A stretch of DNA of 64,000 nucleotides from positions 3,883 to 67,882 of the forward strand of contig DATHGT010000197.1 of the NCBI GenBank assembly GCA_035317605.1, read 5' to 3'. The notes under the pieces are model-generated. The model did no database searches. It worked only from the letters and a program-made list of their open reading frames with translations, and was not told where the DNA came from. Positions 9,863 through 44,399 of the stretch are shown here, one piece after another (within the stretch, counting starts at the first letter, position 1; every line of letters starts with the position of its first letter). The DNA comes from Candidatus Acidiferrum sp. (GTDB taxonomy: Bacteria; Methylomirabilota; Methylomirabilia; Rokubacteriales; CSP1-6). A program made the translations under genes and the position numbers.

Positions 9863-9864
9863 GG

Positions 9865-13068: not shown

Positions 13069-13116
13069 GGGGCACTCCTTTGTGCGACAGCGAGTTCCGT
13101 GATCGCGTCGGTTCGG

Positions 13117-13389: not shown

Positions 13390-13465
13390 GGCCCTGCCCC
13401 TCCTTCGGTTAGGTCGACCCGCTCACGTTACGAGGGGACCGACACCGATTGGACCTGCCGCCGGG

Positions 13466-13494
13466 AGAGTAGAGCGGTCAGACCACCGTGTCAA
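13466..13494 (-). promoter_or_regulatory. Sigma70 promoter for the fdh operon with a TGGTCTGACC palindrome in the spacer
   Basis: Minus strand TTGACA-cggtggtctgaccgctc(17 nt)-TACTCT. Confidence 0.7.
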
Positions 13495-13498
13495 GAAT

Positions 13499-13831: not shown

Positions 13832-13882
13832 GGGACGGGATTCTATCGCACGCGCGGCCCGGCCACGAGCCTTCCCTCTCGA

Positions 13883-22848: not shown

Positions 22849-27305
<4,457 letters not shown>

Positions 27306-27412
27306 AGGCTCGGGTCTCCGTCCGTGAGGACCGAAAAAGTCTTTCAAGACTACAGGATACCTCGCGCGAGTGTCAACGAAGCGGCCACGTCTCGCCCCCC
27401 AGGAAATGCGAA

Positions 27413-27440
27413 GGGCCACGGGTCGAACGACCCGTGGCCC
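27413..27440. terminator. Perfect GC-rich hairpin, probable terminator
   Basis: gggccacgggtcg-aa-cgacccgtggccc (13-bp inverted repeat); only a weak U-tract on the minus strand. Confidence 0.55.
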
Positions 27441-27492
27441 TGAAGTGCTGCTCTCCAGCCACGGGCCGCCTGCCCGTGGCATCCGTCGCGTG

Positions 27493-27582: not shown

Positions 27583-27611
27583 ACTCTACGCGACGGTCAT
27601 AACGGTGTCAA
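27583..27611 (-). promoter_or_regulatory. Sigma70 promoter
   Basis: Minus strand TTGACA-N17-TAGAGT; the -35 box overlaps the FadR stop codon. Confidence 0.55.
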
Positions 27612-28393
27612 TCCGAAACGGGGCGTGGTGGCGGCGTCGAGGTCCTGCCGAACGCCTCCGGGCCGAGCACGAGGGCTTCGACGCCGAGCAAGTGATCGAG
27701 CATCGCCTGGCGGGCCGCGTCCTGGTCGTGCACGGTGATCGCCGCCAGGATCCGCCGGTGGCTTTCGTGCGAGCGAGTCGGGCGGCCCGGCGTGCTCAGC
27801 GATTCCTCGCGGCTCTGGGTGAGCAGGTCCATGATGCCGTGCACGAGCCGGCTGATCGCGCGATTGTGAGCCGCGGAGGCGATCGCGGAGTGAAAATCCG
27901 CGTCCTGCACGAGTCCCGTGCGGCCGGCCGTCACTTCCTTGGCCTGCTCGTCGAGGATGCGGGCCATCTCCTCCACCTCGTGCGGCGTCGCGCGGAGCGC
28001 GGCGAACGCGGCGATCGACGGCTCGAGCAGCCGGCGGGCCTCGAACAGCTCGCCGATCGCCTCGCGCTGGGACAGCATCACCAGCGCCAGCGGCTCGATC
28101 AGCGATTCCACCGAGACCTCGCGCACGAACGTCCCCTCGCCCGGCCGGATCTCGATGAGCCCGAGGCTCTCCAGCGCCCGCAGCGCTTCGCGAACCGACG
28201 TGCGGCTGACCACGAACTTCTCGGCGAGGTCGCGCTCCGGCGGCAGCTGATCGCCGCTCTTGAGCCGTCCCTCGGAGATCATCGCCTTCACCTGCCGCAC
28301 GATCGCCTCGTAGATGCGGGTCGACTTGATGGGCTCGATGCCCATCTCGCGCTCGGCCTTGGCCGCCGGTCGACGACGATCGGGCAGCGTCAT
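27608..28393 (-). CDS. GntR/FadR-subfamily regulator (GlcC/LldR/PdhR-like)
   Basis: GDQLPPERDLAEKFVVSRTSVREALRALE, RPGEGTFV, FCD domain DADFH...AAHN...H..I; alternative start at 28345. Confidence 0.93.
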   Translation of the reverse strand: MTLPDRRRPAAKAEREMGIEPIKSTRIYEAIVRQVKAMISEGRLKSGDQLPPERDLAEKFVVSRTSVREALRALESLGLIEIRPGEGTFVREVSVESLIEPLALVMLSQREAIGELFEARRLLEPSIAAFAALRATPHEVEEMARILDEQAKEVTAGRTGLVQDADFHSAIASAAHNRAISRLVHGIMDLLTQSREESLSTPGRPTRSHESHRRILAAITVHDQDAARQAMLDHLLGVEALVLGPEAFGRTSTPPPRPVSD

Positions 28394-29085
28394 AGCTTCT
28401 CGGGCACCCTCGCCCGCTTGCCCATGGCCAGCCACCAGCCGACCGCCGTCACCACGGCGCCGATGGCGATGGGCAACGGCCGGTGCAGGAACGCCGCGGG
28501 CTCGCCCAGCCACCGCACCACGATGGGATCCTCGAGCATCATCTCGGCCGCGACGTATCCCAAGAGTCCGCCTCCCAGCCACACGATCCAGATGTAACGG
28601 TTCATCAGGCGCGCGAGCAGGCCCGCGCCCCACACCACGATCGGCAGCGACAGCCCGATCCCGAACATGATCAGCGTGAAGTCCCCGTGCGCGGCCGCGG
28701 CGATCGCCAGCACGTTGTCGAGGCTCATCGTAACGTCGGCCACGACGATGATCCAGATGGCCTCCAGCAGCGAGGTGCCGTGGCGCACGTTGCCCTCGCC
28801 CTCCGCCTCGGGACGCACCAGCCTCAGCGCGATCCACACCAGCACCGCCCCGCCCACGAACTGCAGGAACGGAATCCTCAGCAGCACGCTCACGATGCCC
28901 ACGAAGATCAAGCGCAGCGCGACCGCCCCCAGGGCCCCCCACAGCTGGCCGGCGATCCGCTGTCGCCGGGGCAGCGTGCGCACGGCCAGCGCGATCACCA
29001 GCGCGTTGTCACCGGACAGGAGCAGGTTCAGCACGCTGATGCTGAGCAGTCGCAGCCAGAACTCCGGAGTGGCCAGCCAGTCCAT
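28390..29085 (-). CDS. TerC-family (YjbE-like) membrane protein
   Basis: NLLLSGDNALVIALA, IIVVADVTMSLDNVLAIAAAA, GIGLSLPIVVWG. Confidence 0.9.
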   Translation of the reverse strand: MDWLATPEFWLRLLSISVLNLLLSGDNALVIALAVRTLPRRQRIAGQLWGALGAVALRLIFVGIVSVLLRIPFLQFVGGAVLVWIALRLVRPEAEGEGNVRHGTSLLEAIWIIVVADVTMSLDNVLAIAAAAHGDFTLIMFGIGLSLPIVVWGAGLLARLMNRYIWIVWLGGGLLGYVAAEMMLEDPIVVRWLGEPAAFLHRPLPIAIGAVVTAVGWWLAMGKRARVPEKL

Positions 29086-29097
29086 GGGGCGGTTCGG

Positions 29098-30621
29098 CTA
29101 TCCGTGGGAGGCGGAGGGCGCGGCCGGGTTGGGCCGGCCGCGCAGGCGGCGCCACCACGGCGTGAGGATCGGCAGCGCGAAGAAGAAGAGCGCCGCCGCG
29201 GTGATGACGGCGGCGATCGGACGGGTCGCAAAGATCTTGAGCGACCCTTGCGACATGATCAAACTCTGCCGGAGCGCGTTCTCCGCCATGTCACCGAGGA
29301 CCAGAGCTAGCACGAGCGGGGCCAGCGGATAGTCGAGCTTCTTGAACACGTAGCCCACGATCCCGAAGATGAGCATGTACCAGATGTCGATCATCGAGTT
29401 GTGTACGGCGTAGGCCCCGATCGCGCACACCACCACGATCAGCGGGGTGAGGATCGCGAACGGGATGCGAAGGATCGCCGCGAAGAACGGGACGAAGGCC
29501 AGCACCATCAGGACCCCGATCACGTTGCCGGTGTACATGCTGGCGATCAGCCCCCAGACGAAATCGGGCTTGTCCTTGAACAGCATGGGGCCGGGCTGGA
29601 GGCCCCAGATGATGAGCCCTCCCAGCATCACCGCCGCGGTCGGCGAGCCGGGGATGCCGAGCGTGATCATCGGCAGCATGGCCGCGACCCCGGCCGCGTG
29701 CGCGGCCACCTCCGGGGCCACGATTCCCTCCAGCTCGCCCTTGCCGAACCGCTCGGGGTGCCGCGAGAACCGCTTGGCGAACGCGTAGCTCATGAACGAG
29801 GCCGGCGTGGCGCCGCCCGGCTTGAAGCCCATCCAGAAACCGATGATCGAGCCACGCACGAACGTGCGGTAGTAGCGCGGCAAGATCTTCCAGGTGTCCA
29901 GGACCACCCGCAGGTTCATCTCCGTCCGGGCGCCCTCGAAGCGCAGGCCCTCCTCGACCGACAACAGGATTTCGCCGATGCCGAAGAGGCCGATGACGGC
30001 CACGATGAAGTCGAAGCCCTTCATGAGCTCCGTGAAGCCAAAGGTCATCCGGAGCTGACCGGTCACGATGTCGAGGCCGACCGCAGCCAGGATGAACCCG
30101 ATGAGGATGGAGACCAGCGACTTGAGCGGGTTGCCGCCGCCGAGCCCCACGAAGCTCGAAAACGTCAGGAACTGGATCGCGAAGAACTCCGGCGGGCCGA
30201 ACTTGAGCGCGATCTCGGCCAGGAGGGGGGCGAAGAACGTGATCAGCACGATCGAGAAGAACGCGCCCACGAACGACGAGGTGAAGGCCGCGGTCAGGGC
30301 CTGGCCCCCCTGTCCCTGCTTGGCCAGCGGGTATCCGTCGAAGGTGGTGGCCACCGACCACGGCTCGCCGGGGATGTTGAACAGGATCGACGTGATCGCT
30401 CCGCCGAAGAGCGCCCCCCAGTAGATCGAGGTGAGCAGGATGATGGCGGAGGTCGGCGGCATCGTGAACGTGAGCGGCAGCAGGATGGCGACGCCGTTGG
30501 CGCCGCCGAGACCGGGGAGCACGCCGATGATCGTGCCGAGCGTGATGCCCACGACGGCCATGAACAGGTTGAACGGCGTCACGGCGACCTGGAAGCCGAG
30601 GAGAAGGTTCTCGATCCCCAC
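29098..30621 (-). CDS. tctA: Tripartite tricarboxylate transporter large membrane subunit
   Basis: GTIIGVLPGLG, YWGALFGGAITSILFNIPG, ATTFDGYPLAKQG, LGIPGS. Confidence 0.95.
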   Translation of the reverse strand: MGIENLLLGFQVAVTPFNLFMAVVGITLGTIIGVLPGLGGANGVAILLPLTFTMPPTSAIILLTSIYWGALFGGAITSILFNIPGEPWSVATTFDGYPLAKQGQGGQALTAAFTSSFVGAFFSIVLITFFAPLLAEIALKFGPPEFFAIQFLTFSSFVGLGGGNPLKSLVSILIGFILAAVGLDIVTGQLRMTFGFTELMKGFDFIVAVIGLFGIGEILLSVEEGLRFEGARTEMNLRVVLDTWKILPRYYRTFVRGSIIGFWMGFKPGGATPASFMSYAFAKRFSRHPERFGKGELEGIVAPEVAAHAAGVAAMLPMITLGIPGSPTAAVMLGGLIIWGLQPGPMLFKDKPDFVWGLIASMYTGNVIGVLMVLAFVPFFAAILRIPFAILTPLIVVVCAIGAYAVHNSMIDIWYMLIFGIVGYVFKKLDYPLAPLVLALVLGDMAENALRQSLIMSQGSLKIFATRPIAAVITAAALFFFALPILTPWWRRLRGRPNPAAPSASHG

Positions 30622-30624
30622 GGA

Positions 30625-31104
30625 TCAGAACCCGAGCCAGGTTTCGAGGGGGCCCTTGGGCATCGGCACCAGGAACCAGCGCTCGAAGACGATGAACGTC
30701 ACCACGGGCACGAGCACGGCGAGCGCGATCACCGCGCGCCAGTCGTGCCGCCCGACCCACCGCATGTAGAACGCGAGGTAGATCGCCCCCGAAACGTAGA
30801 GGCCCAGACCCCAGGGCAATCCGGGCGGAGCGATCAGCAGCACGAAGGCGGCCATGGGCAGCACGACCTGAAGGACCGGGCGAAGCTGCTCGCGCGTCAC
30901 GAAGCTCTGGATCGCGCTCCGGCGCAGCGCCTGAATGAGCACCCCCACTGAGGCGAGGAGGAGGAGCACGGCCAGCCAGAACGGAAAGAATCCGCTGCGC
31001 GGCCCGTCCGGGCCCCAGCCTACGCCGAGCCGGAGGGCGTCCCAGAGCACGAGACCCCCGAACAGCATCAGCACCACGGCGGTGGCGAGATCGGCGAGGC
31101 GCAT
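30625..31104 (-). CDS. tctB: Tripartite tricarboxylate transporter small membrane subunit
   Basis: GPRSGFFPFW, 4-5 TM helices, C-terminal VFERWFLVPMPKG. Confidence 0.9.
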   Translation of the reverse strand: MRLADLATAVVLMLFGGLVLWDALRLGVGWGPDGPRSGFFPFWLAVLLLLASVGVLIQALRRSAIQSFVTREQLRPVLQVVLPMAAFVLLIAPPGLPWGLGLYVSGAIYLAFYMRWVGRHDWRAVIALAVLVPVVTFIVFERWFLVPMPKGPLETWLGF

Positions 31105-32121
31105 CTATTTCTTGAGCAAGCCGCCCTTCGCCATCAGATCGCGGTGCAGCGCCTCCGCTTCCTCTACCCACTTCACGTACTCGGCCCCGCTGGCGAAGGC
31201 CGGCTTCAGCGCGCCCTGCTTGAGGTAGTCCTTGAACTCCGCGGTGTCGTACACCTTCTTGAGGAAGCCGACGTACCAGTCGACGGCCTCTTTGTTCATG
31301 CCGGGAGCGCCGAAGATCCCGCGCAGCATCAGATACTGGATGTCGATCCCGAGCGCCTCTTTGACGGTCGGGATGTCCTTCCACTCCGGATCCGGGATGC
31401 GGGCGCCGTCGAACAGCGCGAGCGGCCGGACGCGGCCGGCCTTCCAGTGGCTCACGCACTCGATCGGGTTGTTGACGGTCGAATCCACGTGCTTGCCCAC
31501 CAGGTTGACGCAGACCTCGCCACCGCCCTTGAACGGCACGTAGGTGAACTTGACATTGAGCGCATGGTCGAGCTGGACCGTGATGATCTGGTCTTCCTGA
31601 GCCGAGCCGGTGCCACCCATGATGCACTGCCCACCCTGGCGGTCCTTGCACTGCTTGGCGGTCACGGCGGCCAGGTATTCCTTCGCGGTCTTGTACGGCG
31701 TCTCCGCGTTGACCCAGAGAATGAACTGGTCGAGCGCGAGCCGCGCGACCGGAGTGAAGTCCTTCCAGCTGAAGGGAAGCCCGGTGGCGAGCGGCGTGGT
31801 GAAGAGATTCGACAGCGTGATGATGATCGAATAGTTCCGATCATCACCCTTCTTTTCCTTCACGTGCAGAAAGCCCTCGCCACCCGCGCCACCTGACTTG
31901 TTGATCACGATCAGGGGCCGGGGCGAGAGCTTGTGCTTCTCGGCGATGCCGGCGATGAGGCGGGCCATCTGGTCGGCGCCCCCACCGGTGCCGGCGGGAA
32001 TCACGAACTCGATGGGTTTGGTCGGCTCCCACGCGACGGCGGCTGCGCCAACGCCACCGACGAAGACCAGGGCCAGCGATGCCACGATCGACCACACGGC
32101 GAGACGAAGAGTCCGTTTCAT
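31105..32121 (-). CDS. tctC: TctC/Bug-family periplasmic substrate-binding protein
   Basis: Signal peptide, WEPTKPIEFVIPAGTGGGAD, INKSGGAG, YVPFKGGGE. Confidence 0.93.
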   Translation of the reverse strand: MKRTLRLAVWSIVASLALVFVGGVGAAAVAWEPTKPIEFVIPAGTGGGADQMARLIAGIAEKHKLSPRPLIVINKSGGAGGEGFLHVKEKKGDDRNYSIIITLSNLFTTPLATGLPFSWKDFTPVARLALDQFILWVNAETPYKTAKEYLAAVTAKQCKDRQGGQCIMGGTGSAQEDQIITVQLDHALNVKFTYVPFKGGGEVCVNLVGKHVDSTVNNPIECVSHWKAGRVRPLALFDGARIPDPEWKDIPTVKEALGIDIQYLMLRGIFGAPGMNKEAVDWYVGFLKKVYDTAEFKDYLKQGALKPAFASGAEYVKWVEEAEALHRDLMAKGGLLKK

Positions 32122-32165
32122 CTCAACGCCCTCCCCTTCGAGGCTTGCGGGCTCACCAAACATGG

Positions 32166-32201
32166 AAAAGGCCGGGCGCCCGCCCGGGCACCCGGCCCCT
32201 T
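32166..32201 (-). terminator. Rho-independent terminator-like hairpin between the OFOR beta gene and tctC
   Basis: Minus strand ggccgggtgcccg...cgggcgcccggcc followed by TTTT. Confidence 0.55.
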
Positions 32202-32235
32202 CGACTCAGGTCACGTGTCCGAAACCGCCCCCGCG

Positions 32236-33267
32236 TTACTGCGTGCCGAGAGCGGTCTTCGCGGCGTCGAGTCGCTTGAACGGCACGACCGCCGGAATCT
32301 CCCACGTGTTCCACATCTCGTCGACCTTGGCCTGGAAGTGTCCGAGGTCCTCCTCGGTGAAGTGCGCGAACCGTCCCTGCTTGAGCAGGTACTCGCGGAC
32401 CGGCTTGCGCGGACGACCCTCGACGAGGGCCTTGGTCTTGCCGTAGTACTTCACCACGCCGTCTTCGACCTCGTACAGCGGGAAGATGCCGGTCTCGATG
32501 GCGAGCTCGCCCAACTCGTGCGAGAGCATCGGGTCGTAGTCCCAGCCCTTGGGGCACGGATCGAGCGAGTGGATGAATGTCGGGCCGCCGATCGCGAGCG
32601 CCCGGCGGACCTTGTTCATCATCTCGACCGCGTACGACCCGCAGACGGTGGCCACGTACCGGCACTCCGGGTGCCCGGCCGCCATCATGCCCGCCATGTT
32701 CTTCTTCCAGCGCTTGTGCATGATGCGGTGGACGCTGCCGGGCGGGCTGAATGTCGTATTCGCGCCATACGGCGTCGATCCCGACAGCTGGATGTCGGTG
32801 TTGGCGTACGACTCGTTGTCGTACATCAGGATGAGGGAGTTGTACTCCTTGTGGGTCAGCGTCGCGGAAATCGCGCCGAGCCCCATGTCGGCCCCCCCGC
32901 CGTCTCCGCAGAACGCGATGACGTTGATCGGCTCCGCTTTCATCTTCCCTTTCGCCATCAACGCCTTGAGGCCGGCGGCGGTTCCCAGCGCGGCGGAACC
33001 CGACGAGCCGAGCTGGGTGTGCATCCACGGCACCACCCAGGGCGTGGTGTAGTACGTGGTGTTCGCCACGTACATGCAGCCGGTGGAGCCCAGCACGATC
33101 GTGCGGGGACCGGCCGCCTTTACCATCAGCTTCATGATGAGGGCCGACTCGCAGCCCTGGCACGTGCGGTGTCCGGACGTGAAGTACTCCTCGATGGTCA
33201 CCCGCTTGATCCCGCGGAAGGCCTCGAGGACCTGGGTCGCGTTGCTGAACGTCGTGGTCTCAGCCAT
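32236..33267 (-). CDS. 2-oxoacid:ferredoxin oxidoreductase beta (TPP-binding) subunit, oxalate oxidoreductase-like
   Basis: GHRTCQGC, TGCMYVANT, GDGG, YDNESYANT, TPYGANTTF, GHPE..YVAT, PCPKGW. Confidence 0.88.
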   Translation of the reverse strand: MAETTTFSNATQVLEAFRGIKRVTIEEYFTSGHRTCQGCESALIMKLMVKAAGPRTIVLGSTGCMYVANTTYYTTPWVVPWMHTQLGSSGSAALGTAAGLKALMAKGKMKAEPINVIAFCGDGGGADMGLGAISATLTHKEYNSLILMYDNESYANTDIQLSGSTPYGANTTFSPPGSVHRIMHKRWKKNMAGMMAAGHPECRYVATVCGSYAVEMMNKVRRALAIGGPTFIHSLDPCPKGWDYDPMLSHELGELAIETGIFPLYEVEDGVVKYYGKTKALVEGRPRKPVREYLLKQGRFAHFTEEDLGHFQAKVDEMWNTWEIPAVVPFKRLDAAKTALGTQ

Positions 33268-33288
33268 GAGCGTATCTCCTATTGATCC

Positions 33289-34518
33289 TTATTCACGAAC
33301 GCCCAGCCAGTGGGTCTTTGCGTCGGACTTGCCGGCTTTGGCGGCATTGTAGCAGAGGTCCGTCGCGTGATAGACGTCTTCCAGCGTCACCTCACGGCCG
33401 CCCAGGCCGCAGATGAAGCTGAGCAGCGGGGGCCGCTTGTCCGCGTTGTACATGGCCGCGCGGATCTCGGTGGCCACCACGCCGGAGTTGAAGGGCGAGC
33501 CGAACGAGTAGTCGCGGTCGATGACCCCGATGGCCTGGGCCTTCGAGAGCACGTCGACGATCTTTTCGGTGGCGAAGGGCCGGAACCAGCGCAGCCGCAG
33601 GAGGCCGACCTTCTTGCCCTGGGCCCGCATGTTGCGGATGCCGACCTTGATGGGCAGCGAGATCGTCCCCATGCCGACCAGGATGATCTCGGCGTCCTCG
33701 GTCATGTACTCCTCGAACCACGGGTTCTCGGGGCCACGGCCGAACACCTTGCGGAAGTCCGCGTAGGCCTCCTCGATGACGGTCGTGGCCCGCTTCATGG
33801 CCTCGTCGTTCTGGCGCCGGATCTCGATGACCCAGTCCTCGTTGGCCTGGGGCGCGACCGTGATCGGGTTGTCGGGATGAAGCAGCAGGTCGCCGCGATC
33901 GTACCGGGGCAGGAACTTGTCCACCTTCGACTTGGGCGGCACCATGGTCAGCGCCTGGGAATGGGTCAGGAAGGCGCCGTCGGCCGAGATGGCCAGGGGC
34001 AGCAGCACCCGCCGGTCCTCGGCCACTCGATAGGCGATCAGCGTGGTGTCGATCGCCTCCTGCGAGGTGTCGATCCAGCAGAGCATCCAGCCGAGGTCAC
34101 GGACGAAGAGCGCGTCGTTGTGCTCGACCCCGAACGCGCCGGGATCGTCGAGGGCCCGGTTCCCGACCAGGCACACCATCGGCACCCGCAGCGGCGGGGT
34201 CACGACCAGGCACTCCATCGCGTACGCCCAGCCCACCCCCGACGAGCCGCAGAAGACCCGCGCGCCCACCGTGGAGGCGTGCTTGACGATCTCGAACTGG
34301 CTGTGCTCGCCCTCGGCCACGATGTACTCGGCCACCAGCTGGCCGTTGGCGATCTTCTTGGCGATGGCCTGGATGACCGTGTCGTAGGGACGGATCGGAT
34401 ACCCGGTGACCACGTCGATGTCGGCGAGGGTCAGGCCCTCGGCGACCGCTTCGCTGCCCGAGATCAGAAGCTCTTTGTCTTCGGTCTGTGCCGCTGCCGT
34501 CTGCGTCGCGACTGCCAT
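33289..34518 (-). CDS. OFOR alpha subunit, oxalate oxidoreductase-like
   Basis: SD AAGGAG; GYPIRPY (Arg instead of the PFOR YPITP Thr), EGEHSQ, GSSGVG, NRALDDPGAFGVEH, GLGG. Confidence 0.88.
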   Translation of the reverse strand: MAVATQTAAAQTEDKELLISGSEAVAEGLTLADIDVVTGYPIRPYDTVIQAIAKKIANGQLVAEYIVAEGEHSQFEIVKHASTVGARVFCGSSGVGWAYAMECLVVTPPLRVPMVCLVGNRALDDPGAFGVEHNDALFVRDLGWMLCWIDTSQEAIDTTLIAYRVAEDRRVLLPLAISADGAFLTHSQALTMVPPKSKVDKFLPRYDRGDLLLHPDNPITVAPQANEDWVIEIRRQNDEAMKRATTVIEEAYADFRKVFGRGPENPWFEEYMTEDAEIILVGMGTISLPIKVGIRNMRAQGKKVGLLRLRWFRPFATEKIVDVLSKAQAIGVIDRDYSFGSPFNSGVVATEIRAAMYNADKRPPLLSFICGLGGREVTLEDVYHATDLCYNAAKAGKSDAKTHWLGVRE

Positions 34519-34540
34519 CGTCGTCTCCTTGGATATGTTC

Positions 34541-34590
34541 GCCTCGCACGGCGGGGCCCCAGCCCCGCGACGTGCTGCGGCTCGCCCTGC
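34541..34590. repeat. Degenerate REP-like element (unit C-related)
   Basis: Contains ctcgcac and ggctcgcc words shared with 21069-21102; internal gcgggg/ccccgc pairing. Confidence 0.4.
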
Positions 34591-35798
34591 TAGACCGTCT
34601 TGTGCGCGGCGTTCTCGCCGGGGATGCCCGCGGTGATCTCCACGCCGCCGAGGTCGAGGTCCTGCTTCAGCTCCTCGTCGTACTGGCCGCGGAAGCGGAA
34701 GCCGTGGGAGCGGACCGTCGCCTTCTTGTCGCCGATCTTGCCCAGCATCCACGTCTTGTACGCGGGCTTGTCCGTGCGCCACATCTCCCACTGGCTCGCG
34801 TTGTCGTCGAACTGCGACTCGTTGACCATCGTGATGCAGTTCTCGACGGGGCAGACCGCCTCGCACACCCCGCAGCCGCAGCACGACTCCATGTTGGCGT
34901 CGAAGGTGGCGTCGGGCATGACGTCGAAGCAGGAATCGGGGCACGAGATCCAGCAGAGGTTGCACTTCACGCAGGTGTCGAAGTCGATGACCGGGCGCAT
35001 GGTGCGGGTCGTGTACTTCTTGAAGTACGGGTTGCGCTCGGGCACGTACCCCTTGCCCTCTTCCTTGGGCTTGCCCACGGGGATGGCCGGGATGGTGACG
35101 CCTTCCCGCATTTCCCACCACTTGGGCTTCTCGAACGAGTACGGGACCTCGGTGTTGCCCTCGGTCATCTTGATGGCGCGGCTCTCCAGACGGTCGTACG
35201 CCTTGCGGGCGGAGGCGACCTTGAGCTCGGAGCCCCACTCCATCTCGCCGATGGCCTCGCACACGGCGTCCAGGCTCAGGAACGACGGGGCGATCTTGGC
35301 CAGCGCGCCGAGGATGCGCGCTTCGGTGTGGTCTTCCTTGTAGACCCAGAGGCCGGAGAAGGACGCTTTGGCCCGGATGAGGGCCAGCGTGTAGGGCGCC
35401 TCCTTCTTGTGGATGTCGCGCAGCAGCTCGTCGAACGACCGGATCGACGTCATCAGCAGGGTGCCGTTGGGTTGGGTGACCCGGTTGATGGGCTGCAGAC
35501 CGTACCAGGCCCATGACTCCACGCCTTTGGAGAGCGTGTCGTCGACGCAGATCGTGACGTCGACCGACTTCGGCTCGTAGCGGGCCATGTTCTGCTCGAG
35601 CTCTTCCTTCGTGTCGGCGACGATCGCGAAGTCCTTGGCGGGGATGCCGTTTCGCTGCGGGCTGTCGCCGTAGCGTCCGAACGCGATGCCCCATCGCCCG
35701 GCCTTCCGTGACGACAGCACGATGCCGCGGACGATACGCGCCGCGAGGTTCTTCTGGAAAATGCCCCGGTAGACGATTTCTGCGGTCAACGCTGCCAT
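34590..35798 (-). CDS. OFOR gamma-delta fusion subunit with two 4Fe-4S clusters (OOR delta-like)
   Basis: N-terminal gamma-like domain (YGDSPQRNGIP); C-terminal CVKCNLCWISCP and CCGCGVCEAVCP. Confidence 0.85.
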   Translation of the reverse strand: MAALTAEIVYRGIFQKNLAARIVRGIVLSSRKAGRWGIAFGRYGDSPQRNGIPAKDFAIVADTKEELEQNMARYEPKSVDVTICVDDTLSKGVESWAWYGLQPINRVTQPNGTLLMTSIRSFDELLRDIHKKEAPYTLALIRAKASFSGLWVYKEDHTEARILGALAKIAPSFLSLDAVCEAIGEMEWGSELKVASARKAYDRLESRAIKMTEGNTEVPYSFEKPKWWEMREGVTIPAIPVGKPKEEGKGYVPERNPYFKKYTTRTMRPVIDFDTCVKCNLCWISCPDSCFDVMPDATFDANMESCCGCGVCEAVCPVENCITMVNESQFDDNASQWEMWRTDKPAYKTWMLGKIGDKKATVRSHGFRFRGQYDEELKQDLDLGGVEITAGIPGENAAHKTV

Positions 35799-35836
35799 GC
35801 GCTCCTCCTGAGCCTGCTGGTCCTGAGCTGGTCCGG

Positions 35837-35879
35837 TGGTCCGACCAGAAGAATGCCCTTACACCGTCAGGGCTGTCAA
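35837..35879 (-). promoter_or_regulatory. Promoter of the OOR-like operon with a FadR-type operator TGGTCGGACCA at the predicted start site
   Basis: Minus strand TTGACA-N18-CATTCT-tc-TGGTCGGACCA-ccGGACCA; perfect TGGT-N3-ACCA palindrome at 35837-35847. Confidence 0.65.
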
Positions 35880-36664
35880 GCCCTTGCCAGAAACCCGGTC
35901 AGAGCGCCCGTGAACGCCTCGGGCTGCTCGAGGTTCGACAAGTGGGCGGCCGACGGGAGAATCACCAGCTCGCTCCCCTTGATGCGCTCGTTCATCACTT
36001 TCGACGCGGCCACCGGCGTGCCCTGATCCTCCTCGCCGACGATGATGAAGGTCGGGATCGAGATCGCCGCGATCCGGTCCGTCAGATCGAGCGCCGAGAT
36101 CGCGTGACAGCACCCCGCGTAACCGCGCGGCGGCGTCGAACGAATCATGGTCGCGACCTTGTCGACCACGTCCTTGCGCCGCTCGCGGAACGGCGCGGTG
36201 AGCCAGCGCGCCAGCGTCGGCTCGACCAGCGGGTCCATGCCTTGGGTCTCGGCGGTCTTGATGCGATCGGCCCAGAGCGGCCTGGCCTCGGCGGGAATGC
36301 GGCTCGACGTGTCGCACAGCGAGAGGCTCGCGAACAGCTCCGGGTGCTTCAGCGCGAGGGTCTGGCCGATCATGCCGCCCATCGACAGGCCGACCCAGTG
36401 CGTCCGGGAAATGCCGAGCGCCTGGAGCAGCTGCCGCGCGTCCTCTGCAAGCTGATCAAGGGTGTAAGCCCCGCCCGGCGCCTCGGTGGCGCCATGACCG
36501 CGCGTCTCGTAGTTGAGTACACGGTAGCGGGCCCGGAGCGCGGCCACCTGCGGGTCCCACATCGACAGATCGGTCGCCAGCGAGTGGCTCAGCGTCACGA
36601 CCGGCGCATTCGCCGGACCTTCCAGCGTGTAGTTCATCTCGATCCCGTTCGCCTTCACCTTCAT
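35876..36664 (-). CDS. 3-oxoadipate enol-lactonase (PcaD)-like alpha/beta hydrolase
   Basis: PVVTLSHSLATDLSMWDPQ, GLSMGGMIG, GEEDQGTP, AAHLSNLEQP. Confidence 0.85.
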   Translation of the reverse strand: MKVKANGIEMNYTLEGPANAPVVTLSHSLATDLSMWDPQVAALRARYRVLNYETRGHGATEAPGGAYTLDQLAEDARQLLQALGISRTHWVGLSMGGMIGQTLALKHPELFASLSLCDTSSRIPAEARPLWADRIKTAETQGMDPLVEPTLARWLTAPFRERRKDVVDKVATMIRSTPPRGYAGCCHAISALDLTDRIAAISIPTFIIVGEEDQGTPVAASKVMNERIKGSELVILPSAAHLSNLEQPEAFTGALTGFLARA

Positions 36665-37302
36665 CTGTTCGTCTCCCTTCTCCGTCTGACCATCTCGCAA
36701 AAATACCGGTGGACGGCCTGCTCGCCGGTCACCTCGGGGTGGAACGTGGCCACGAGCACCGTCCCTTGCCGGGCCATGACGGGATCGTCGCCCTGACGCG
36801 CGAGCACCTCGACACCCTCGCCGACCCGCCGGATGCGCGGGGCGCGGATGAACATCATCTCGATCGACGCCGGGGCGCCGTCGAGCACGGCGGTGCCGCT
36901 GACCTGGAACGACTCGCGCTGGCGGCCGTACGAATTTCGCTCCACGTCCACGTCGATGAACCCGAGCGAGAACTGGCGGGGGTTCTCGACCTCCCGCGCG
37001 AGCAGGATGAGCCCGGCGCAGGTCCCGAACATGGGTTTGCCCGCGGCGTGGAACTTTTCCAGCGCGGGCACGAAGTGCCACTCGTCGATCAGCTTGAGCA
37101 GGGTCGTGCTCTCCCCGCCGGGCATGACGAGCCCGTCGAGGTCCGCGAGCTGCTCGGGCTTGCGGACCTCGACGGGGTCCACGATCATTGCACCGCTCGC
37201 CTCACCGCCCGACGCGGTTCGGCTCGCACTGCGCCCGCACGCCTTCAGCGTCTTCACGTGGAGCGCGAAGTCACCCTGAAGGGCGAGCACGCCAATTTTC
37301 AC
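36661..37302 (-). CDS. pdxT: Pyridoxal 5'-phosphate synthase glutaminase subunit, with about 14-aa N-terminal insertion
   Basis: IGVLALQGDF, MPGGESTT, GTCAGLILLA, RNSYGRQRESF, FIRAP, TFHPE. Confidence 0.95.
   Translation of the reverse strand: MKIGVLALQGDFALHVKTLKACGRSASRTASGGEASGAMIVDPVEVRKPEQLADLDGLVMPGGESTTLLKLIDEWHFVPALEKFHAAGKPMFGTCAGLILLAREVENPRQFSLGFIDVDVERNSYGRQRESFQVSGTAVLDGAPASIEMMFIRAPRIRRVGEGVEVLARQGDDPVMARQGTVLVATFHPEVTGEQAVHRYFCEMVRRRRETNR
37195..37232. repeat. REP-like unit C inserted in frame within pdxT
   Basis: gctcgcctc...ctcgcactgc matches intergenic 21069-21102; encodes RSASRTASGGEAS. Confidence 0.65.
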
Positions 37303-37304
37303 TC

Positions 37305-38201
37305 CTACCAGCCTCTGGTTTGCAGCAGCTCGCTTTCCGGGAGCTTGGAGGTCTCGATGCCGGGCATGGCCTCGCCGAGATCCTCGCTGACCTTCACCAG
37401 CACGTCGGGGTCCTTGTAGTGCGTGGTGGCCTGGACGATGGCCTTCGCGCGCTTGGCCGGATCCTCCGACTTGAAGATGCCCGAGCCCACGAAGACCGCC
37501 TCGGCGCCGAGCTGCATCATGAGCGCGGCGTCAGCCGGGGTCGCGATGCCTCCCGCGGAGAAGTTGGGCACGGGCAGGCGGCCCGCCTTCGACACCCAGC
37601 GGATCAGGTCGTAGGGCGCGCCGAGGTTCTTGGCCTCGGTCATCAGCTCCTCGGGGCCGAGCGTGGTCAGCCGGCGGATCCCCGAGATCACCGCGCGCAT
37701 GTGCCGGACGGCCTCCACGATGTTGCCGGAGCCCGCCTCGCCCTTGGTGCGGATCATCGCGGCGCCCTCGCCGATGCGCCGGAGCGCCTCGCCGAGATCG
37801 CGGCAGCCGCACACGAACGGGATGCGGAACGCGAACTTGTCGATGTGATAGTGCTCGTCGGCCGGGGTGAGCACCTCGGACTCGTCGATGTAGTCCACGC
37901 CCAGGGCCTCGAGGATCTGCGCCTCGACGAAGTGGCCGATGCGGGCCTTCGCCATCACCGGGATGGTGACGGCCTTCTGGATCTCCTGGATCTTCCGCAC
38001 CGGCGACATCCGCGCGACGCCACCCTGCTTGCGGATGTCCGAGGGCACGCGCTCGAGGGCCATCACCGACGCGGCGCCCGCGTCTTGCGCGATCTTGGCC
38101 TGCTCGGCGTTGGTGACGTCCATGATCACGCCGCCCTTGAGCATCTCGGCCAGACCGATGTGCTTGCGTTCCGCGATCCGCAGCTCGTTCAGCTCAGTCA
38201 T
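37305..38201 (-). CDS. pdxS: Pyridoxal 5'-phosphate synthase lyase subunit
   Basis: [59 protein letters not shown]. Confidence 0.97.
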
Positions 38202-38238
38202 TGCGTTCTCCTTGTTTGGATTTCGTGCTTCGTCCGCA

Positions 38239-39771
38239 TCACACGACCGGGACGGTGGCGCGCTCGGGCAGCGGGCTCCGTGGCCGGCGACGCTGCGCCT
38301 CGCGCACGGCCTCGCCGAGCCGCTGGACGCCGCGCTCGATGTCGCCCGTCGGCAGCGACGAGAACGACAGGCGGAGGGCCCGCGAGCCGCTGCCGTTGAG
38401 GAAGAACACGTCGCCCGGCGTGAAGGCGACGCCTCGCTCCAGCGCGAGCGGGAGCAATCTCGCCGCGGTCACCCCCTCCGGCAACGTCAGGAACAGCGAG
38501 AACCCGCCGGTCGGCTCCGTCCACGTCGTGGACGTGGGCATGCGCTGCTTGAGCGCGCCCAGCAGCACCTCGCGGCGCCGGCGATACTCGCGGGCGACCC
38601 GCGCGGCGTGCCGGTCGAGCAGTCGCCGCTCGCAGAAGCAATGGACGGCGGCCTGGATCAAGGCGCTGGTGTGCAGGTCGGCCAGCTGCTTGGCCGCCTG
38701 CAACCGCTCGATCACCGGCGGCGGCGCCACGAGCCAGCCCAATCGCAGCCCGGGAAAGAGGATCTTCGAGAACGTGCCGATGTAGATGACCACGCCGTCG
38801 GTGTCGTGTGACTTCAACGGTCCGAGGGGACGCAGCCCGTAATAGAGGCTGCCGTCGAACCCGTCCTCCACGATCGGCACCTGGTGGCGGGCGGCCGCGG
38901 CGAGCAGGCGCCGGCCCGTCTCCACGGTCATCCCGAGCCCGGTCGGGTTGTGACAGGTCGGCTGGCAGTAGAAGAGCTTCGGGCCGTGCCGCTCGAGCAC
39001 GCGCTCGAAGACCTCCGGGCGAGGCCCGCTCTCGTCCCACGGCACCGCCGCGAGCTGAGCGCCGAAGGACCGAAAGACCTGCATCGCGCGCGGGTAGGTC
39101 GGCTGCTCGATGGCCACCACGTCGCCGGGATCGACGAGGGTGCGGGCGATGAGATCGAACCCCTGCTGCGAGCCGTTGACGATCATGATCTCGTCGGGCG
39201 AGGCTTCGAGGCCGAAGCGCAGCAGGTACGTGGAGAGATAGCGGCGCAGCGGCGGATAGCCGGCCACGGGATAGTACTGGAGCAGCGCCTCGCCCTCCCG
39301 CCGGATCACCTCGTTGAGCGCGCGTCGAAAGGCGTCGGTGGGAAACAGCGCGCTGTCCGGCATGCCCCCGGCGAAGGAGATCACGCCGTTGCCGGCGGGA
39401 GTCGGGCCCGCGGAGGCGCGCCGGCGCTCGTCTTCGGCGCCGATGATCTGCGCCGTCCGGGAGAAGATCTCGGACCACTCGATGGTGGCCGCGCGGCGGG
39501 CCACGGCCGGCTCGGCGGCGACGCGCTCGGCCGGACGCTCGGCCACGAACGTCCCCTGCCCCACCCGCGCGCGGGCCAGGCCGGCGGCGACCAGCTCTTC
39601 GTACGCCAGCACCACGGTGGCGCGGTTGACCCCGAGCTCGTCGGCCAGCTCGCGCGTGGCGGGCAGCTTGGCGCCCGAGGGCAGGAGCCCCTCGCGCATC
39701 AGCCGCTCCAGGTGCGCCTGGATCTGGCGGGCCAGCGGCACCGGCTTGTTCCGATCGAGCAGGATCTGCAT
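38239..39771 (-). CDS. MocR/PdxR-family PLP-dependent regulator (GntR wHTH + aminotransferase)
   Basis: [42 protein letters not shown]; directly upstream of pdxS. Confidence 0.93.
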
Positions 39772-40877: not shown

Positions 40878-42299
40878 TCATGGTGCGAGCGGAGGCCGGC
40901 GGGTATGCCAGTCGGTGGCGCGCTGGTACGTATCCGCGGCGCGCAGCACCGTGGCTTCGTCGAATGGACGGCCGACGATCTGAAGGCCGATGGGCAGACC
41001 GTCTGAGGTGAAGCCGCACGGCAGCGCGCAGGCCGGGTGGCCGGTGAAATTGAACGGACGCGTGAAGCGCAGCAGCGACGACCGCACGTCGATCGTGCCT
41101 TCGCCGGCGTCGACCTCCGTCTCGCCGATCCGCGTGGCCGGGATGGGCGTGGCCGGCGAGAGCAGCACGTCGCGCCGGGCCAGCGCCGCGTCCACCGCGG
41201 CCCGCACGAGCGCGCGCGCTTGCTGGGAGCGGACGTAGTGCACGCCGCTCACGAACGCGCCCGCGCGCAGCCGCTCGATGACGTCGGGCTGGTAATCGCC
41301 GGGCCGCCCGCGCACCCACTCCGCGTGATACGCGAGCGCCTCCGACGCGACGATGGCCATCGAGCCCGCGGCGACGCTGCCGACGTGCTCGAGCGTCACC
41401 TCGTCCACGTGGGCGCCCAGGCCTTCGAGCGTCTTCACCGCGCGGTCGACCGCGTCACGAACTTCCGGGACCGCCGCGTCGACAAAGCCTGAGCGCAGCA
41501 CGCCCACGCGCAGTCCCTTGACGTCGCCCGTCAGCGCCGCCGAGTACTCGGGCACGGGCAGCACGCTGGTCGTGGGATCCGCCGGGTCATACCCCGCGAG
41601 TGCCTTCAGCACGAGCGCGGCATCCGTCGCCGAGCGCGTCATCGGACCGGCGTGGTCCATCGACCACGACAGCGGCAACACGCCCGCGCGGCTCACGCGG
41701 CCATACGTCGGCTTCAGCCCGGTGATCCCGCACAGCGACGCGGGAATGCGGATCGATCCGCCGGTGTCGGAACCGAGCGCGAACGGGACCAGGCCGGCCG
41801 CCACCGCCACGCCCGAGCCCGAGGACGATCCGCCGGCGATCCGCTCTTCACTCGCGTCCCACGGGTTGAGCGAGGTGCCGTAGTGCACGTTCAGACCTTC
41901 CGGACCGTACGCGAACTCGTGCATGGTGAGCTTGCCGAGCGAGATCGCCCCGGCGGCGGCCAATCGACGGACGACGGTCGCGTCCTCCGCCGGCACCCGG
42001 TCGGCGAGAATCTTCGACCCGCCCGTCGTGCGGACTCCCGCGGTGTCGAAGAGATCCTTCAGCGCGAACGGCACGCCGTGCAGCGGCCCCCGCGAGCGCC
42101 CGGCGGCCAGCTCAGCCTCGGCGGCGCGCGCGGCCTCGAGGGCGGCGTCCGCGGTGAGCGTGATGAAGCAGCGCAGACGCGCATCGAGCGCCGCGATGCG
42201 ATCGAGATGCGCGCGGACGACCTCGACCGGCGAGACGTCCTTGGTCGCGATCGAGCGCGCGAGGTCGGCGACGGACGTCCAGTGCAGATCGGCCATCAC
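40878..42299 (-). CDS. Amidase-signature family amidohydrolase (GatA/AtzE-like)
   Basis: GPLHGVPFALKDL, GGSSSGS, LGSDTGGSIRIPA, GLKPTYGRVS. Confidence 0.93.
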   Translation of the reverse strand: MMADLHWTSVADLARSIATKDVSPVEVVRAHLDRIAALDARLRCFITLTADAALEAARAAEAELAAGRSRGPLHGVPFALKDLFDTAGVRTTGGSKILADRVPAEDATVVRRLAAAGAISLGKLTMHEFAYGPEGLNVHYGTSLNPWDASEERIAGGSSSGSGVAVAAGLVPFALGSDTGGSIRIPASLCGITGLKPTYGRVSRAGVLPLSWSMDHAGPMTRSATDAALVLKALAGYDPADPTTSVLPVPEYSAALTGDVKGLRVGVLRSGFVDAAVPEVRDAVDRAVKTLEGLGAHVDEVTLEHVGSVAAGSMAIVASEALAYHAEWVRGRPGDYQPDVIERLRAGAFVSGVHYVRSQQARALVRAAVDAALARRDVLLSPATPIPATRIGETEVDAGEGTIDVRSSLLRFTRPFNFTGHPACALPCGFTSDGLPIGLQIVGRPFDEATVLRAADTYQRATDWHTRRPPLAP

Positions 42300-42475
42300 A
42301 CCACCCGGTACTGCGTGACGGGCTCGACGGAGGCCAGCGGCAGCGCCTCCAGCCGCTCGAGCGCCTGGAGCGCGCGCTCGATCGCGGACCGCAGCGGCTC
42401 GAGATCCGAGGGCGCGAAGTCGAACCCGGCCAGGCGCGCGGTGCGTTGCAGCGTTTCCACGTCGACGGAATTCAT
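42296..42475 (-). CDS. Small GatC/AtzG-like amidase partner
   Basis: 59 aa MNSVDVETLQRTARLAGF...LPLASVEPVTQY; stop overlaps the amidase start. Confidence 0.65.
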   Translation of the reverse strand: MNSVDVETLQRTARLAGFDFAPSDLEPLRSAIERALQALERLEALPLASVEPVTQYRVV

Positions 42476-42530
42476 CCGCGTGAGGATACCATCACCGCGC
42501 GTCGCGGAAACCCGGCTAGAATCGAAAGTC

Positions 42531-44399
42531 GTGGCCCTCACGCTCACCGTGCTCACCGATCCCGCCGATCCCGCGGCGCGCCGCGACGTCGCTCTCACCG
42601 GCGGGAACGTGCTCAAGGCGGCCCAGGCCGCGGGGATCGAGATCACCGCCATCTGCGGGGGCCGCGGGCGCTGCACGTCCTGCCGCATCAAGTTCGTGTC
42701 CGGCGCGCCGCCGCCGCCGACGCTGGGCGACGAGGTCCAGCTCGGCGCCGATCTCGTACGCGAGGGCTACCGTCTGGCCTGCCAGTGTCGTCCGAGCGAA
42801 GCCGCGATCGTGCAGCTGGCGCCGCCGCTCCAGGAGGAATCGTTCCAGATTCTCGCCGCCGTGCCCGGCGCGGCGCGCGCGAGCGGCGTGGTCATCGACG
42901 CGGGCATCGTCAAGCAGGTCGTGAAGGTCGACCTGCCGCGCGAGGAGCACCGGCAGACGTCCGACCTCGACCAGCTGCTGACCGCGATCGGCCATGAAGC
43001 TGCCGACGTCGGCCCGAGCGTGCTGGGGACGCTTCCCGCCGCCCTGCGCGGCGACGACGGTCAGGTCACGGTGACCACGTTCGGCCGCCGCGTCCTCGCC
43101 GTCGAGCGCGGCGACACCGCGCTCATGAAGTTCGGTCTCGCCATCGACGTCGGGACCACCAGCGTGGTGACGACCTTGCTGGAGCTGGAATCGGGCGAGC
43201 AGCTCGCCGCGGTCTCGAGCCTCAATCCACAATCCGCGTTCGGCGGCGACCTCATGTCGCGGATCGCCTTCGCCCAGTTCAACCCCGGCAACCTGCGCAA
43301 GCTCACCACCCGGATCGTCGGGCTCCTGAACCAGCACGTCGCCGAGGTGTGCCGCGAGGCGGGCGTGCTGTCGAAGTGGATCTACAAGGCCGTGGTGGTC
43401 GGCAACACGTGCATGCATCACCTGCTGCTCGGCATCGATCCCTCGTACGTGGGGCTGGCGCCCTACGCGCCGGTGATGCGCCATCCGCTGGTGCTGCCCG
43501 CGCGCGACCTGCCGCTCAAGATCGCGCCGGAGGCGCGCGTGTGTCTGCTCCCGCTGGTGGCCGGCTTCGTGGGCGCCGACGCCGTCGCGGTCGCGATCGC
43601 CACCCGCATCTACGCCGCCACCGACGTTCGGGTGGCCGTCGACATCGGAACCAACGGTGAGGTCCTGCTCGGCTCGCCCGATCGGCTGTGGGCGTGCTCG
43701 GCGCCGGCGGGCCCCGCCTTCGAAGGCTCCCAGATCCGTCACGGAATGCGCGGCGCGTCCGGCGCCATCGACCGGGTGACCATCGACGACGACGTCCACG
43801 TCCACACGATCGGCGAGACCGACCCGCTCGGCATCTGCGGGTCCGGGCTGATCGATCTGCTCGCGGGACTCCTCGACGCCGGCGTGATCGACCCGACGGG
43901 ACTGATCCAGGTCGAGCGGCGCGACGAGCTGCCGCCACGGCTGGGCGATCGCGTGGTGATGCGCGGCGAGGAGCGCCAGTTCATCGTGCTGAGAGCCGGC
44001 GAGGCGGGCGCCGCGCGCGAGATCGTGCTGACCCAGGACGACGTTCGGCAAGTCCAGCTCGCCAAGGGCGCGATCGCCTCGGGCGTCGCCATGCTCATTC
44101 ACGTCGCCGGGATCCGGCTCGACGGCGTCGCCGAGCTGATGCTGGCCGGCGGCTTCGGCAACTACGTGTCGATCCCCAGCGCGCTGCGCATCGGGCTCAT
44201 CCCCGCGCTGCCCGTCGAGCGCGTTCGGTATGTCGGCAACGCGGCGTCGCTGGGCGCCCAGCTCTGCCTGCTCTCCGAAGCCGAGCGCTCGCGCGCCGCG
44301 GAGATCGCCGCGCGCATCGAGCACGTCTCGCTGGCCGCGCACCCGGACTTCGAGCAGATCTTCGTGGACTGCATGAACTTCCCGCCCCTCGCGTCATGA
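42531..44399 (+). CDS. ASKHA/DUF4445 ATP-dependent reductive activator of corrinoid proteins (RACE) with N-terminal 2Fe-2S domain
   Basis: CGGRGRCTSC...RLACQC; AIDVGTT, FGGDLMSRI, VVGNTCM, DIGTNGE, APAGPAFEG, GICGSG, LAGGFG; GTG start approximate. Confidence 0.92.
   Translation: MALTLTVLTDPADPAARRDVALTGGNVLKAAQAAGIEITAICGGRGRCTSCRIKFVSGAPPPPTLGDEVQLGADLVREGYRLACQCRPSEAAIVQLAPPLQEESFQILAAVPGAARASGVVIDAGIVKQVVKVDLPREEHRQTSDLDQLLTAIGHEAADVGPSVLGTLPAALRGDDGQVTVTTFGRRVLAVERGDTALMKFGLAIDVGTTSVVTTLLELESGEQLAAVSSLNPQSAFGGDLMSRIAFAQFNPGNLRKLTTRIVGLLNQHVAEVCREAGVLSKWIYKAVVVGNTCMHHLLLGIDPSYVGLAPYAPVMRHPLVLPARDLPLKIAPEARVCLLPLVAGFVGADAVAVAIATRIYAATDVRVAVDIGTNGEVLLGSPDRLWACSAPAGPAFEGSQIRHGMRGASGAIDRVTIDDDVHVHTIGETDPLGICGSGLIDLLAGLLDAGVIDPTGLIQVERRDELPPRLGDRVVMRGEERQFIVLRAGEAGAAREIVLTQDDVRQVQLAKGAIASGVAMLIHVAGIRLDGVAELMLAGGFGNYVSIPSALRIGLIPALPVERVRYVGNAASLGAQLCLLSEAERSRAAEIAARIEHVSLAAHPDFEQIFVDCMNFPPLAS

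Follow-up and report, generated by a model that had tools for sequence, protein, structure and literature searches.

Oxalate oxidoreductase (OOR) of Moorella thermoacetica has, to our knowledge, been characterised from this one thermophilic acetogen only. In its alpha subunit the loop that bears Asp116 reportedly swings in after substrate binding and is proposed to drive decarboxylation by altering the charge environment, and we take Arg109, Phe117 and Gln211 of the same subunit to line the substrate site. The literature-curated catalytic residues of OOR are Arg31-alpha, Asp116-alpha, Glu154-gamma and Asn143-beta (PMC12654022), and the enzyme is the only 2-oxoacid:ferredoxin oxidoreductase (OFOR) without a requirement for coenzyme A (CoA) (PMC12337175). 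OOR goes unmentioned in a 2024 review of oxalotrophy in the environment, and a gut-microbiome survey omitted it for want of information. Here we describe a three-gene cassette from a 64-kb window (the whole stretch of DNA analysed, 64,000 nucleotides of contig DATHGT010000197.1), which, judged by phylogeny and residue states, belongs to a distinct sister clade of M. thermoacetica OOR within the thiamine pyrophosphate (TPP), three-[4Fe-4S] 2-oxoacid:ferredoxin oxidoreductase family, and which probably encodes a CoA-independent oxalate:ferredoxin oxidoreductase with a rebuilt "switch".

A sequence-only reading of this DNA had proposed a delta-alpha-beta architecture with a gamma-ferredoxin fusion and a likeness to M. 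thermoacetica OOR, and both were borne out. The three genes of the cassette are intact and co-directional, and the best solved relatives of their products are the three chains of M. thermoacetica OOR (alpha 1.3e-96, beta 2.1e-88, delta 8.9e-18), followed by the four-subunit pyruvate:ferredoxin oxidoreductase (PFOR) of Methanosarcina acetivorans. The alpha subunit is 43% identical to that of OOR and 32% to that of M. acetivorans PFOR. Its AlphaFold model (a monomer, predicted local distance difference test score (pLDDT) of 86) has the solved OOR alpha chain, 5c4i_A, as its best fold match, with template modelling (TM) scores of 0.90/0.93, compared with 0.88 for M. acetivorans PFOR (9BT4). The top NCBIfam models for the three subunits were likewise the OOR equivalogs (NF045790-NF045792).

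At the domain level, Pfam placed POR_N and PFOR_II in alpha and TPP_enzyme_C in beta. Alpha starts with the ATG at 34518, with AAGGAG ahead of the start codon; the longer open reading frame (ORF) listed for alpha by the ORF finder arises from in-frame read-through upstream. The first gene encodes a gamma-delta subunit, in which a 2x[4Fe-4S] Fer4_21 domain spans residues 270-324; this ferredoxin domain (domain V) carries CVKCNLCWISCP (276-287) and CCGCGVCEAVCP (306-317). Its N-terminal 255 amino acids matched no Pfam model, PF01558 (POR) included, even at E<=10. A profile of this N-terminus from six lineages aligns with domain III (OOR delta plus a related gamma subunit; hhalign 98.1%, E 9.7e-14), and this alignment to the OOR/OFOR domain III shows that the predicted fusion of a gamma domain with a ferredoxin is real. 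Gamma-delta is ~60% identical within the clade versus 27% to OOR delta, contains internal insertions and ends in a 70-residue extension (DNASQWEMW...RSHGFRFRGQY...), conserved clade-wide with no Pfam match, which could be a docking site for the electron acceptor.

To examine the placement further, cluster representatives at 50% identity were searched exhaustively and the matches were aligned with the query as anchor. Among the best 150 representatives considered, Arg at the YPI-R-P position was confined to three groups: the query clade, the true OOR clade and the singleton P0133. All other representatives had YPITP or a near variant, the Thr being common to each of the 73 PFOR-like representatives compared. 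A neighbour-joining tree was built from 92 full-length alpha subunits with 200 bootstraps; in it the Arg31 superclade was monophyletic at 100%, the true OOR clade at 99.5% and the query clade plus P0133 at 88%. Thus the query alpha is the sister of the clade holding the characterised OOR, not inside it, and the phylogeny, which the earlier reading had named as a test of its proposal, gave no clustering with the YPITP-type PFORs or 2-oxoisovalerate ferredoxin oxidoreductases (VORs).

The motifs quoted in that reading were all found: YPIRPY (40-45) and GSSGVG (91-96) in alpha, where the altered loop GNRALDDPGAFGVEH occupies 119-133, and GCMYVANT (63-70), YDNESYANT (149-157), TPYGANTTF (165-173) and PCPKGW (237-242) in beta. 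The four beta motifs are common with OOR and not with PFOR. The cluster cysteines of beta (C36, C39, C64 and C238) are invariant in the alignment, and the TPP motif GDGG stands at 121-124. Alpha Arg43, Arg121, Phe129 and Gln224 align with OOR Arg31, Arg109, Phe117 and Gln211, and beta Asn156 corresponds to OOR Asn143-beta. Glu155 of gamma-delta aligns with OOR Glu154-gamma and is Glu or Asp clade-wide, in an indel-rich stretch that is only ~25% identical. Of the four curated catalytic residues of OOR, three are thus kept (Arg43, beta Asn156 and, probably, in this weakly aligned stretch, Glu155), and Asp116 is lost.

The loss lies in the alpha loop, which reads NRALDDPGAFGVEH here and DRTLDPPGDFGEEH in OOR. 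In 5c4i_A the sequence is IADRTLDPPGDFGEEH, with R109, D116 and F117 identified by direct count, and alignment to this chain upheld the proposal that the loop Asp was lost and a new Asp had appeared three residues upstream: OOR Asp116 is Ala128 here, and OOR Pro113 is Asp125. Two further loop positions differ from OOR (D108 to N and E119 to V). Of 120 close homologues, 117 have exactly the loop GNRALDDPGAFGVEH and all 120 have YPIRPY; the loop also recurs unchanged in 79 of the 85 loci fetched. When P0122, a 66%-identical clade member, was used as second query, all 119 of the sequences retrieved carried GNRALDDPGAFG[VCT]EH or a near variant. In the true OOR clade, PPGDFG, which includes Asp116, was kept in 120/120 sequences. 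The alteration of the loop is far beyond chance. In the alpha model, the only internal stretches with pLDDT <50 are 126-128 and 130-132, both in the altered loop.

The differences are not confined to this loop. Alpha Asp46 stands at the position of OOR Thr34, next to the Arg motif, and in beta a Gly has become Asp two residues past the substrate Asn: ANTDIQ was found in 78/78 clade copies, and Gly occupies that site in OOR, in the P0133 clade, in M. acetivorans PFOR and in 9/9 alpha-beta fusion OFORs. A comparison of fixed positions (235 clade sequences, 119 true OOR sequences and 73 PFOR-like representatives) revealed 13 alpha positions that the two Arg31 clades have in common versus the PFOR consensus: R31, Y33, Q62, G79, S80, G82, V83, A88, F117, E120, A124, W136 and P252. 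Clade-wide invariance, the intact TPP motif and cluster cysteines, and the transporter and regulator that accompany the cassette indicate purifying selection on what is probably a working enzyme.

The host, a soil bacterium, had been expected to lie outside the acetogens, and its closest homologues assign it to Candidatus Rokuibacteriota/Methylomirabilota (uncultured Rokubacteria), from which we know of no described acetogen. The 120 closest alpha proteins are 88-94% identical, and the named ones are labelled Rokuibacteriota/Methylomirabilota. Among species-representative genomes, 148 loci were found, the best 80 of them 82-92% identical. With P0122 as query, the clade was also found in NC10/Methylomirabilis, Binatia, Nitrospinota, Deltaproteobacteria, Dehalococcoidia, Tectomicrobia, Armatimonadota and a "Firmicutes" bin, with alpha identities of 63-94% across its phyla. 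In the sequences compared, the altered loop is an invariant hallmark of a large multi-phylum clade and not a peculiarity of a single genome. Where public names are given they are "pyruvate ferredoxin oxidoreductase" or "(4Fe-4S)-binding protein". The literature searched contained no account of the clade or of OOR-type enzymes in Rokubacteria or related phyla, and nothing relevant by title or abstract on Rokubacteria and oxalate. The same cassette (alpha 84-90% identical) also occurs in bins labelled Vicinamibacterales, Verrucomicrobiia, Binatia, Limnocylindria, Dormiibacterota, Acidoferrum, Thermodesulfobacteriota and the archaeon Nitrosocosmicus (loci L015, L036, L040, L052, L056, L058, L061, L067 and L069); these are most likely mis-binned Rokubacteria contigs.

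The surroundings of the cassette are best explained as a self-regulated catabolic operon: promoter/operator, gamma-delta, alpha, beta, hairpin, tctC, tctB, tctA, terC/yjbE and gntR (Table 1). The order gamma-delta, alpha, beta, tctCBA, (terC), gntR recurred in essentially all Rokubacteria loci that were long enough. The -35 element overlaps the stop codon of the upstream hydrolase gene, and the upstream regions of 65 related loci mostly show TTGACA and a TAnnnT-type -10 directly ahead of the operator. The palindrome of this operator, here TGGTCGGACCA, occurs once in the 64-kb window versus 0.06 expected. In 46 Rokubacteria loci there was one exact copy per locus, upstream of gamma-delta wherever its position was examined. 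Further copies lie ahead of the GntR gene in L088, a locus from Binatia, and, in L086, from another lineage, in the interval from beta to the OxlT-like genes. This layout is predicted to be that of a FadR-type repressor site lying over the transcription start.

Most of 66 related loci have a strong hairpin at the point equivalent to that of the hairpin between beta and tctC here; its sequence varies, and the mean best local minimum free energy is -35.6 kcal/mol. This suggests a conserved terminator, attenuator or transcript-stabilising element, and partial termination or transcript processing between the enzyme and transporter genes. Rfam and tRNA scans of the window returned nothing, so no riboswitch is predicted ahead of the operon or of terC. 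The adjacent tctC, tctB and tctA, all above the Pfam cut-offs, make up a tripartite tricarboxylate transporter (TTT); solved TctC relatives gave no clue to the ligand. The regulator ATG at 28393 overlaps the terC stop codon (ATGA), and the nearest NCBIfam models of the regulator are NanR, LldR, PdhR and GlcC. The TerC/YjbE protein might, as a speculation, export metal that enters together with oxalate.

Table 1. Positions of the cassette, its operon and neighbouring genes in the window
Feature	Position	Strand	Details and basis
Gamma-delta fusion subunit, 402 amino acids	34590-35798	minus	Pfam, NCBIfam, comparison with OOR
Clade-specific C-terminal extension of gamma-delta, residues about 332-402	34590-34805	minus	OOR delta without it
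Alpha subunit, 409 amino acids, domains I and II	33289-34518	minus	Pfam, NCBIfam, comparison with OOR
"Switch loop" codons, GNRALDDPGAFGVEH, alpha 119-133	34120-34164	minus	Alignment to OOR
Beta subunit, 343 amino acids, domain VI	32236-33267	minus	Pfam, comparison with OOR
Codons of YDNESYANT-D-IQ in beta	32788-32823	minus	Asp158 in place of OOR Gly145
Promoter-like region	35850-35879	minus	-35 TTGACA (35879-35874), 18-nt spacer, weak -10 CATTCT (35855-35850)
Predicted operator, FadR/GntR type	35829-35847		Palindrome TGGTCnGACCA 35837-35847 and half-site GGACCA 35829-35834; directly downstream of the -10
GC-rich hairpin with 17-bp stem, then CCTTTTCC (short T run)	32165-32202	minus	Between the beta stop codon and tctC
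tctC, periplasmic binding protein of tripartite tricarboxylate-type transporter	31105-32121	minus	Pfam TctC; likely start MKRTLRL at 32121
tctB, small membrane subunit	30625-31104	minus	Pfam TctB
tctA, large membrane subunit	29098-30621	minus	Pfam TctA, 513 bits
TerC/YjbE-family putative metal-transport membrane protein	28390-29085	minus	Pfam TerC; TIGR03717 207 bits versus cut-off 134.8
GntR/FCD-family regulator	27608-28393	minus	Pfam GntR and FCD; alternative start at 28345
TTGACA-17-TAGAGT site	27583-27611		With the pyruvate phosphate dikinase gene
Pyruvate phosphate dikinase	24600-27482	minus	After the regulator
Enol-lactonase-like hydrolase to MocR/PdxR-like regulator	35876-39771	minus	Upstream of the cassette
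RACo-like to URO-D-family gene	41652-46326	plus	
Molybdopterin oxidoreductase cluster	8157-14656	minus	

Six further lineages were looked up for the context of the cassette. A GntR/FCD ortholog, 45-54% identical to the window regulator, heads gamma-delta, alpha and beta in all six. TctCBA and TerC follow the cassette in two Armatimonadota-like loci, L087 and L089 (TctA 68% and TctC 48-51% identical to the window proteins). TerC genes stand near the cassette in four lineages including the window (L087, 15506-16414; L089, 15625-16542; L091, 13648-14409). In Binatia, a deltaproteobacterial bin and an NC10 bin nothing obvious follows the cassette, with TerC near it in NC10. The P0122 cassette is directly followed by a major facilitator superfamily protein that scores 479 bits on the oxalate/formate antiporter model TIGR04259 (cut-off 335), a clade member on a 5.6-Mb contig has two antiporter equivalogs downstream of beta (468 and 459 bits), and in the P0133 clade such an equivalog lies nearby (419 bits). 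Orthology of the regulators between OOR and the query clade was considered and rejected, the window regulator being 28% identical to the OOR-linked GntR of Moorella.

Oxalate is favoured as substrate because antiporter equivalogs adjoin clade cassettes and because both arginines and all OOR-type beta motifs are kept; the antiporter neighbours favour it over the other substrates that the earlier reading had listed (oxamate, glyoxylate and mesoxalate). CoA independence is likewise expected, since OOR is the CoA-free OFOR and the distance of domain III from the CoA-type gamma domain is larger here than in OOR: PF01558 matches OOR delta but not gamma-delta of the window (E<=10). The enzyme and its operon might then work as follows: i) TctC would bind a dicarboxylate, most probably oxalate and possibly as a metal complex, in the periplasm, and TctBA would bring it into the cell; ii) the substrate would be held by the Arg43/Arg121 pair, Gln224 and beta Asn156; iii) TPP would attack it, and CoA-free oxidation would yield two CO2; iv) the two electrons would pass from the beta cluster through the pair of clusters in the delta domain and on to an acceptor of the ferredoxin type; v) the FCD-type GntR would repress at TGGTCnGACCA over the transcription start, and substrate binding would free the operator. 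Since position 116 is Ala in every member, the switch would be supplied elsewhere or the step would work differently; the task of OOR Asp116 may fall to the clade-specific alpha Asp125, alpha Asp46 or beta Asp158.

Several points weigh against oxalate oxidation of this kind: i) the Ala found in every clade member replaces a residue that is listed as catalytic in OOR; ii) 22 alpha positions are fixed differently between the clade and OOR, among them T34D (directly after YPIRPY), S64E, Y67K, G68H, V85W, D108N, P113D, D116A, Y170A and D201H; iii) the cut-offs of the OOR equivalogs were not reached (score/cut-off of 372/500 for alpha, 350/590 for beta and 86.5/230 for delta); iv) the transporter of the window is a TctCBA without assigned specificity and not of the OxlT type, and the OxlT-like proteins elsewhere also score near or above the cut-off of the L-lactate transporter model, so that their annotation is not fully specific; v) the Moorella OOR operon has an LctP-type permease and a CDC48-like AAA gene, both lacking here; vi) the query clade and true OOR both occur in NC10-labelled bins, which would fit two functions; vii) no activity data for the clade were found in the literature searched.

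Much of this would also suit an enzyme of the same fold and chemistry acting on another small anionic 2-oxoacid-like substrate, such as glyoxylate, mesoxalate, oxamate, oxaloacetate or sulfopyruvate, in which the altered loop, with the newly gained acidic residues, would adjust specificity and not stand in for the OOR switch. The fixed alpha differences (Asp116 included) together with beta G145D, the scores below the equivalog cut-offs, the low identity (28%) between the regulators of the two clades and the co-occurrence of both clades in NC10-labelled bins all point that way. So does the breadth of TTT transporters and FCD regulators, which serve many carboxylates, with NanR, LldR, PdhR and GlcC as the nearest models of the regulator here. 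Yet two lineages of the clade, like the sister P0133 clade, have antiporter equivalogs beside the cassette. The enzyme also still has the two arginines that bind the dianion, Gln224, Phe129 and every OOR-specific beta motif; we regard a different substrate as unlikely, though a serious competitor to oxalate.

Far less probable is an ordinary CoA-dependent pyruvate (or 2-oxoisovalerate) ferredoxin oxidoreductase, perhaps working with the neighbouring pyruvate phosphate dikinase. The source annotations do say "pyruvate ferredoxin oxidoreductase", the archaeal PorA score (333 bits) is not far under that of the OOR model (372), and a pyruvate phosphate dikinase gene follows the regulator, similar genes being near a true OOR locus. 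But the cassette has Arg where all of the PFOR-like representatives have the Thr of YPITP, it falls outside the YPITP group at 100% bootstrap, every Por/Vor model is far under its cut-off (PorA_Arch 333/550, PorB 286/405), its gamma domain has no PF01558 match, its alpha is closer to OOR than to M. acetivorans PFOR, and the dikinase gene comes with a promoter-like site of its own. A catalytically dead or non-enzymatic relic, to which the change of Asp116 to Ala might point, is the least credible of all, given that the Ala state is invariant across phyla at 63-94% alpha identity, that the TPP motif and cluster cysteines are intact and that the operon has its own transporter and regulator.

Beyond the operon, synteny extends to the pyruvate phosphate dikinase gene in 41 of 80 loci, and genes for phosphoenolpyruvate-utilising enzymes lie near the true OOR locus L094; this proximity may be coincidental. 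Upstream of the cassette lie genes for a 3-oxoadipate enol-lactonase-like hydrolase, pdxT, pdxS and a MocR/PdxR-like GntR-aminotransferase regulator. The hydrolase is found in 27/80 loci, and the pdxST-mocR block is syntenic across Rokubacteria, without apparent link to the OFOR. On the plus strand, a RACo-like reductive activator of corrinoid proteins (2Fe-2S and ASKHA, 915 amino acids) is followed by a URO-D-family methyltransferase-like gene, with an ORF between them that had no Pfam match; the arrangement hints at a corrinoid-dependent methyl-transfer system in the Rokubacterium. A further cluster comprises a 1067-amino-acid molybdopterin oxidoreductase, a 4Fe-4S subunit and an NrfD-type membrane subunit, with an FdhD/NarQ-family gene near, and is predicted to be a Psr/formate-dehydrogenase-like respiratory module.

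What is new here is thus a sister class to OOR with a presumably rebuilt switch and its own regulator, operator and transporter, wide in uncultured metagenome-assembled genome (MAG) lineages that are mostly from soil and groundwater. If the oxalate reading is true, a large group of uncultured bacteria that abound in soil and groundwater would be able to turn oxalate into CO2 and low-potential electrons with a single enzyme and without CoA, a capacity now hidden under the label "pyruvate ferredoxin oxidoreductase", which would alter gene-based estimates of oxalate consumers in the oxalate-carbonate pathway; the clade may be an overlooked route of oxalate breakdown in soils. It is also a natural experiment on the proposed bait-and-switch catalysis, in which the key Asp is gone and strong purifying selection persists, and the compensating candidates (alpha D125, alpha D46 and beta D158) form a small set open to mutagenesis. 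Going one step further, we tentatively put forward, with a little less than even confidence, a second and mechanistically distinct OOR class in non-acetogenic, largely soil and groundwater phyla, in which the bait-and-switch Asp has moved to alpha Asp125 or Asp46 or to beta Asp158, and which, with high-affinity uptake of the TTT or OxlT type, would act as a so far overlooked, CoA-independent soil-oxalate sink that passes ferredoxin-level electrons to respiratory, not acetogenic, metabolism.

Compared with known systems, M. acetivorans PFOR (PDB 9BT4) has the same superfamily, fold, TPP motif and cluster ligands, but it has Thr31 in YPITPQ, depends on CoA, binds its substrate in a hydrophobic pocket and keeps gamma and delta as separate subunits. 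The P0133 clade (L085, contig VAOY01024246.1; genes 3972-7255 and 457-1755) is nearer: it has FPIRPY, the loop GNRALDDPG.. (GNRALDDPGNFAMEW) with Asp at 113 and none at 116, where Asn stands, and OOR-type beta motifs. Its alpha is 45% identical to that of the query clade, from which it is set apart by separate gamma and delta genes, the lack of Gln211, the kept beta Gly145 and an AsnC-type regulator. The closest characterised system remains M. thermoacetica OOR (EC 1.2.7.10; PDB 5C4I/5EXD/5EXE), with the same three-subunit layout and a domain III fused to a ferredoxin domain. Common to both are Arg31, Arg109, Phe117, Gln211 and beta Asn143 (probably also, by a weak alignment, an acidic residue at gamma 154), the motifs GSSGVG, GCMYVANT, YDNESYANT, TPYGANTTF and PCPKGW, and a nearby GntR/FCD gene, and together they are monophyletic versus all other OFORs. 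In true OOR operons a CDC48-like double-AAA ATPase gene stands directly upstream of delta (5670-7871 of L093, Moorella; 5810-8002 of L094, Caldinitratiruptor); the contig of P0134, which represents the OOR clade, is not long enough to reveal its neighbours. Identities to M. thermoacetica OOR are 43% for alpha, about 47% for beta and 27% for gamma-delta, the last with insertions and the 70-residue C-terminal extension that OOR delta lacks. The clade differs in Asp116 to Ala, Pro113 to Asp, Asp108 to Asn, Thr34 to Asp and beta Gly145 to Asp, and its hosts are Rokubacteria and other mostly uncultured MAG lineages, whereas those of OOR are thermophilic Firmicutes.

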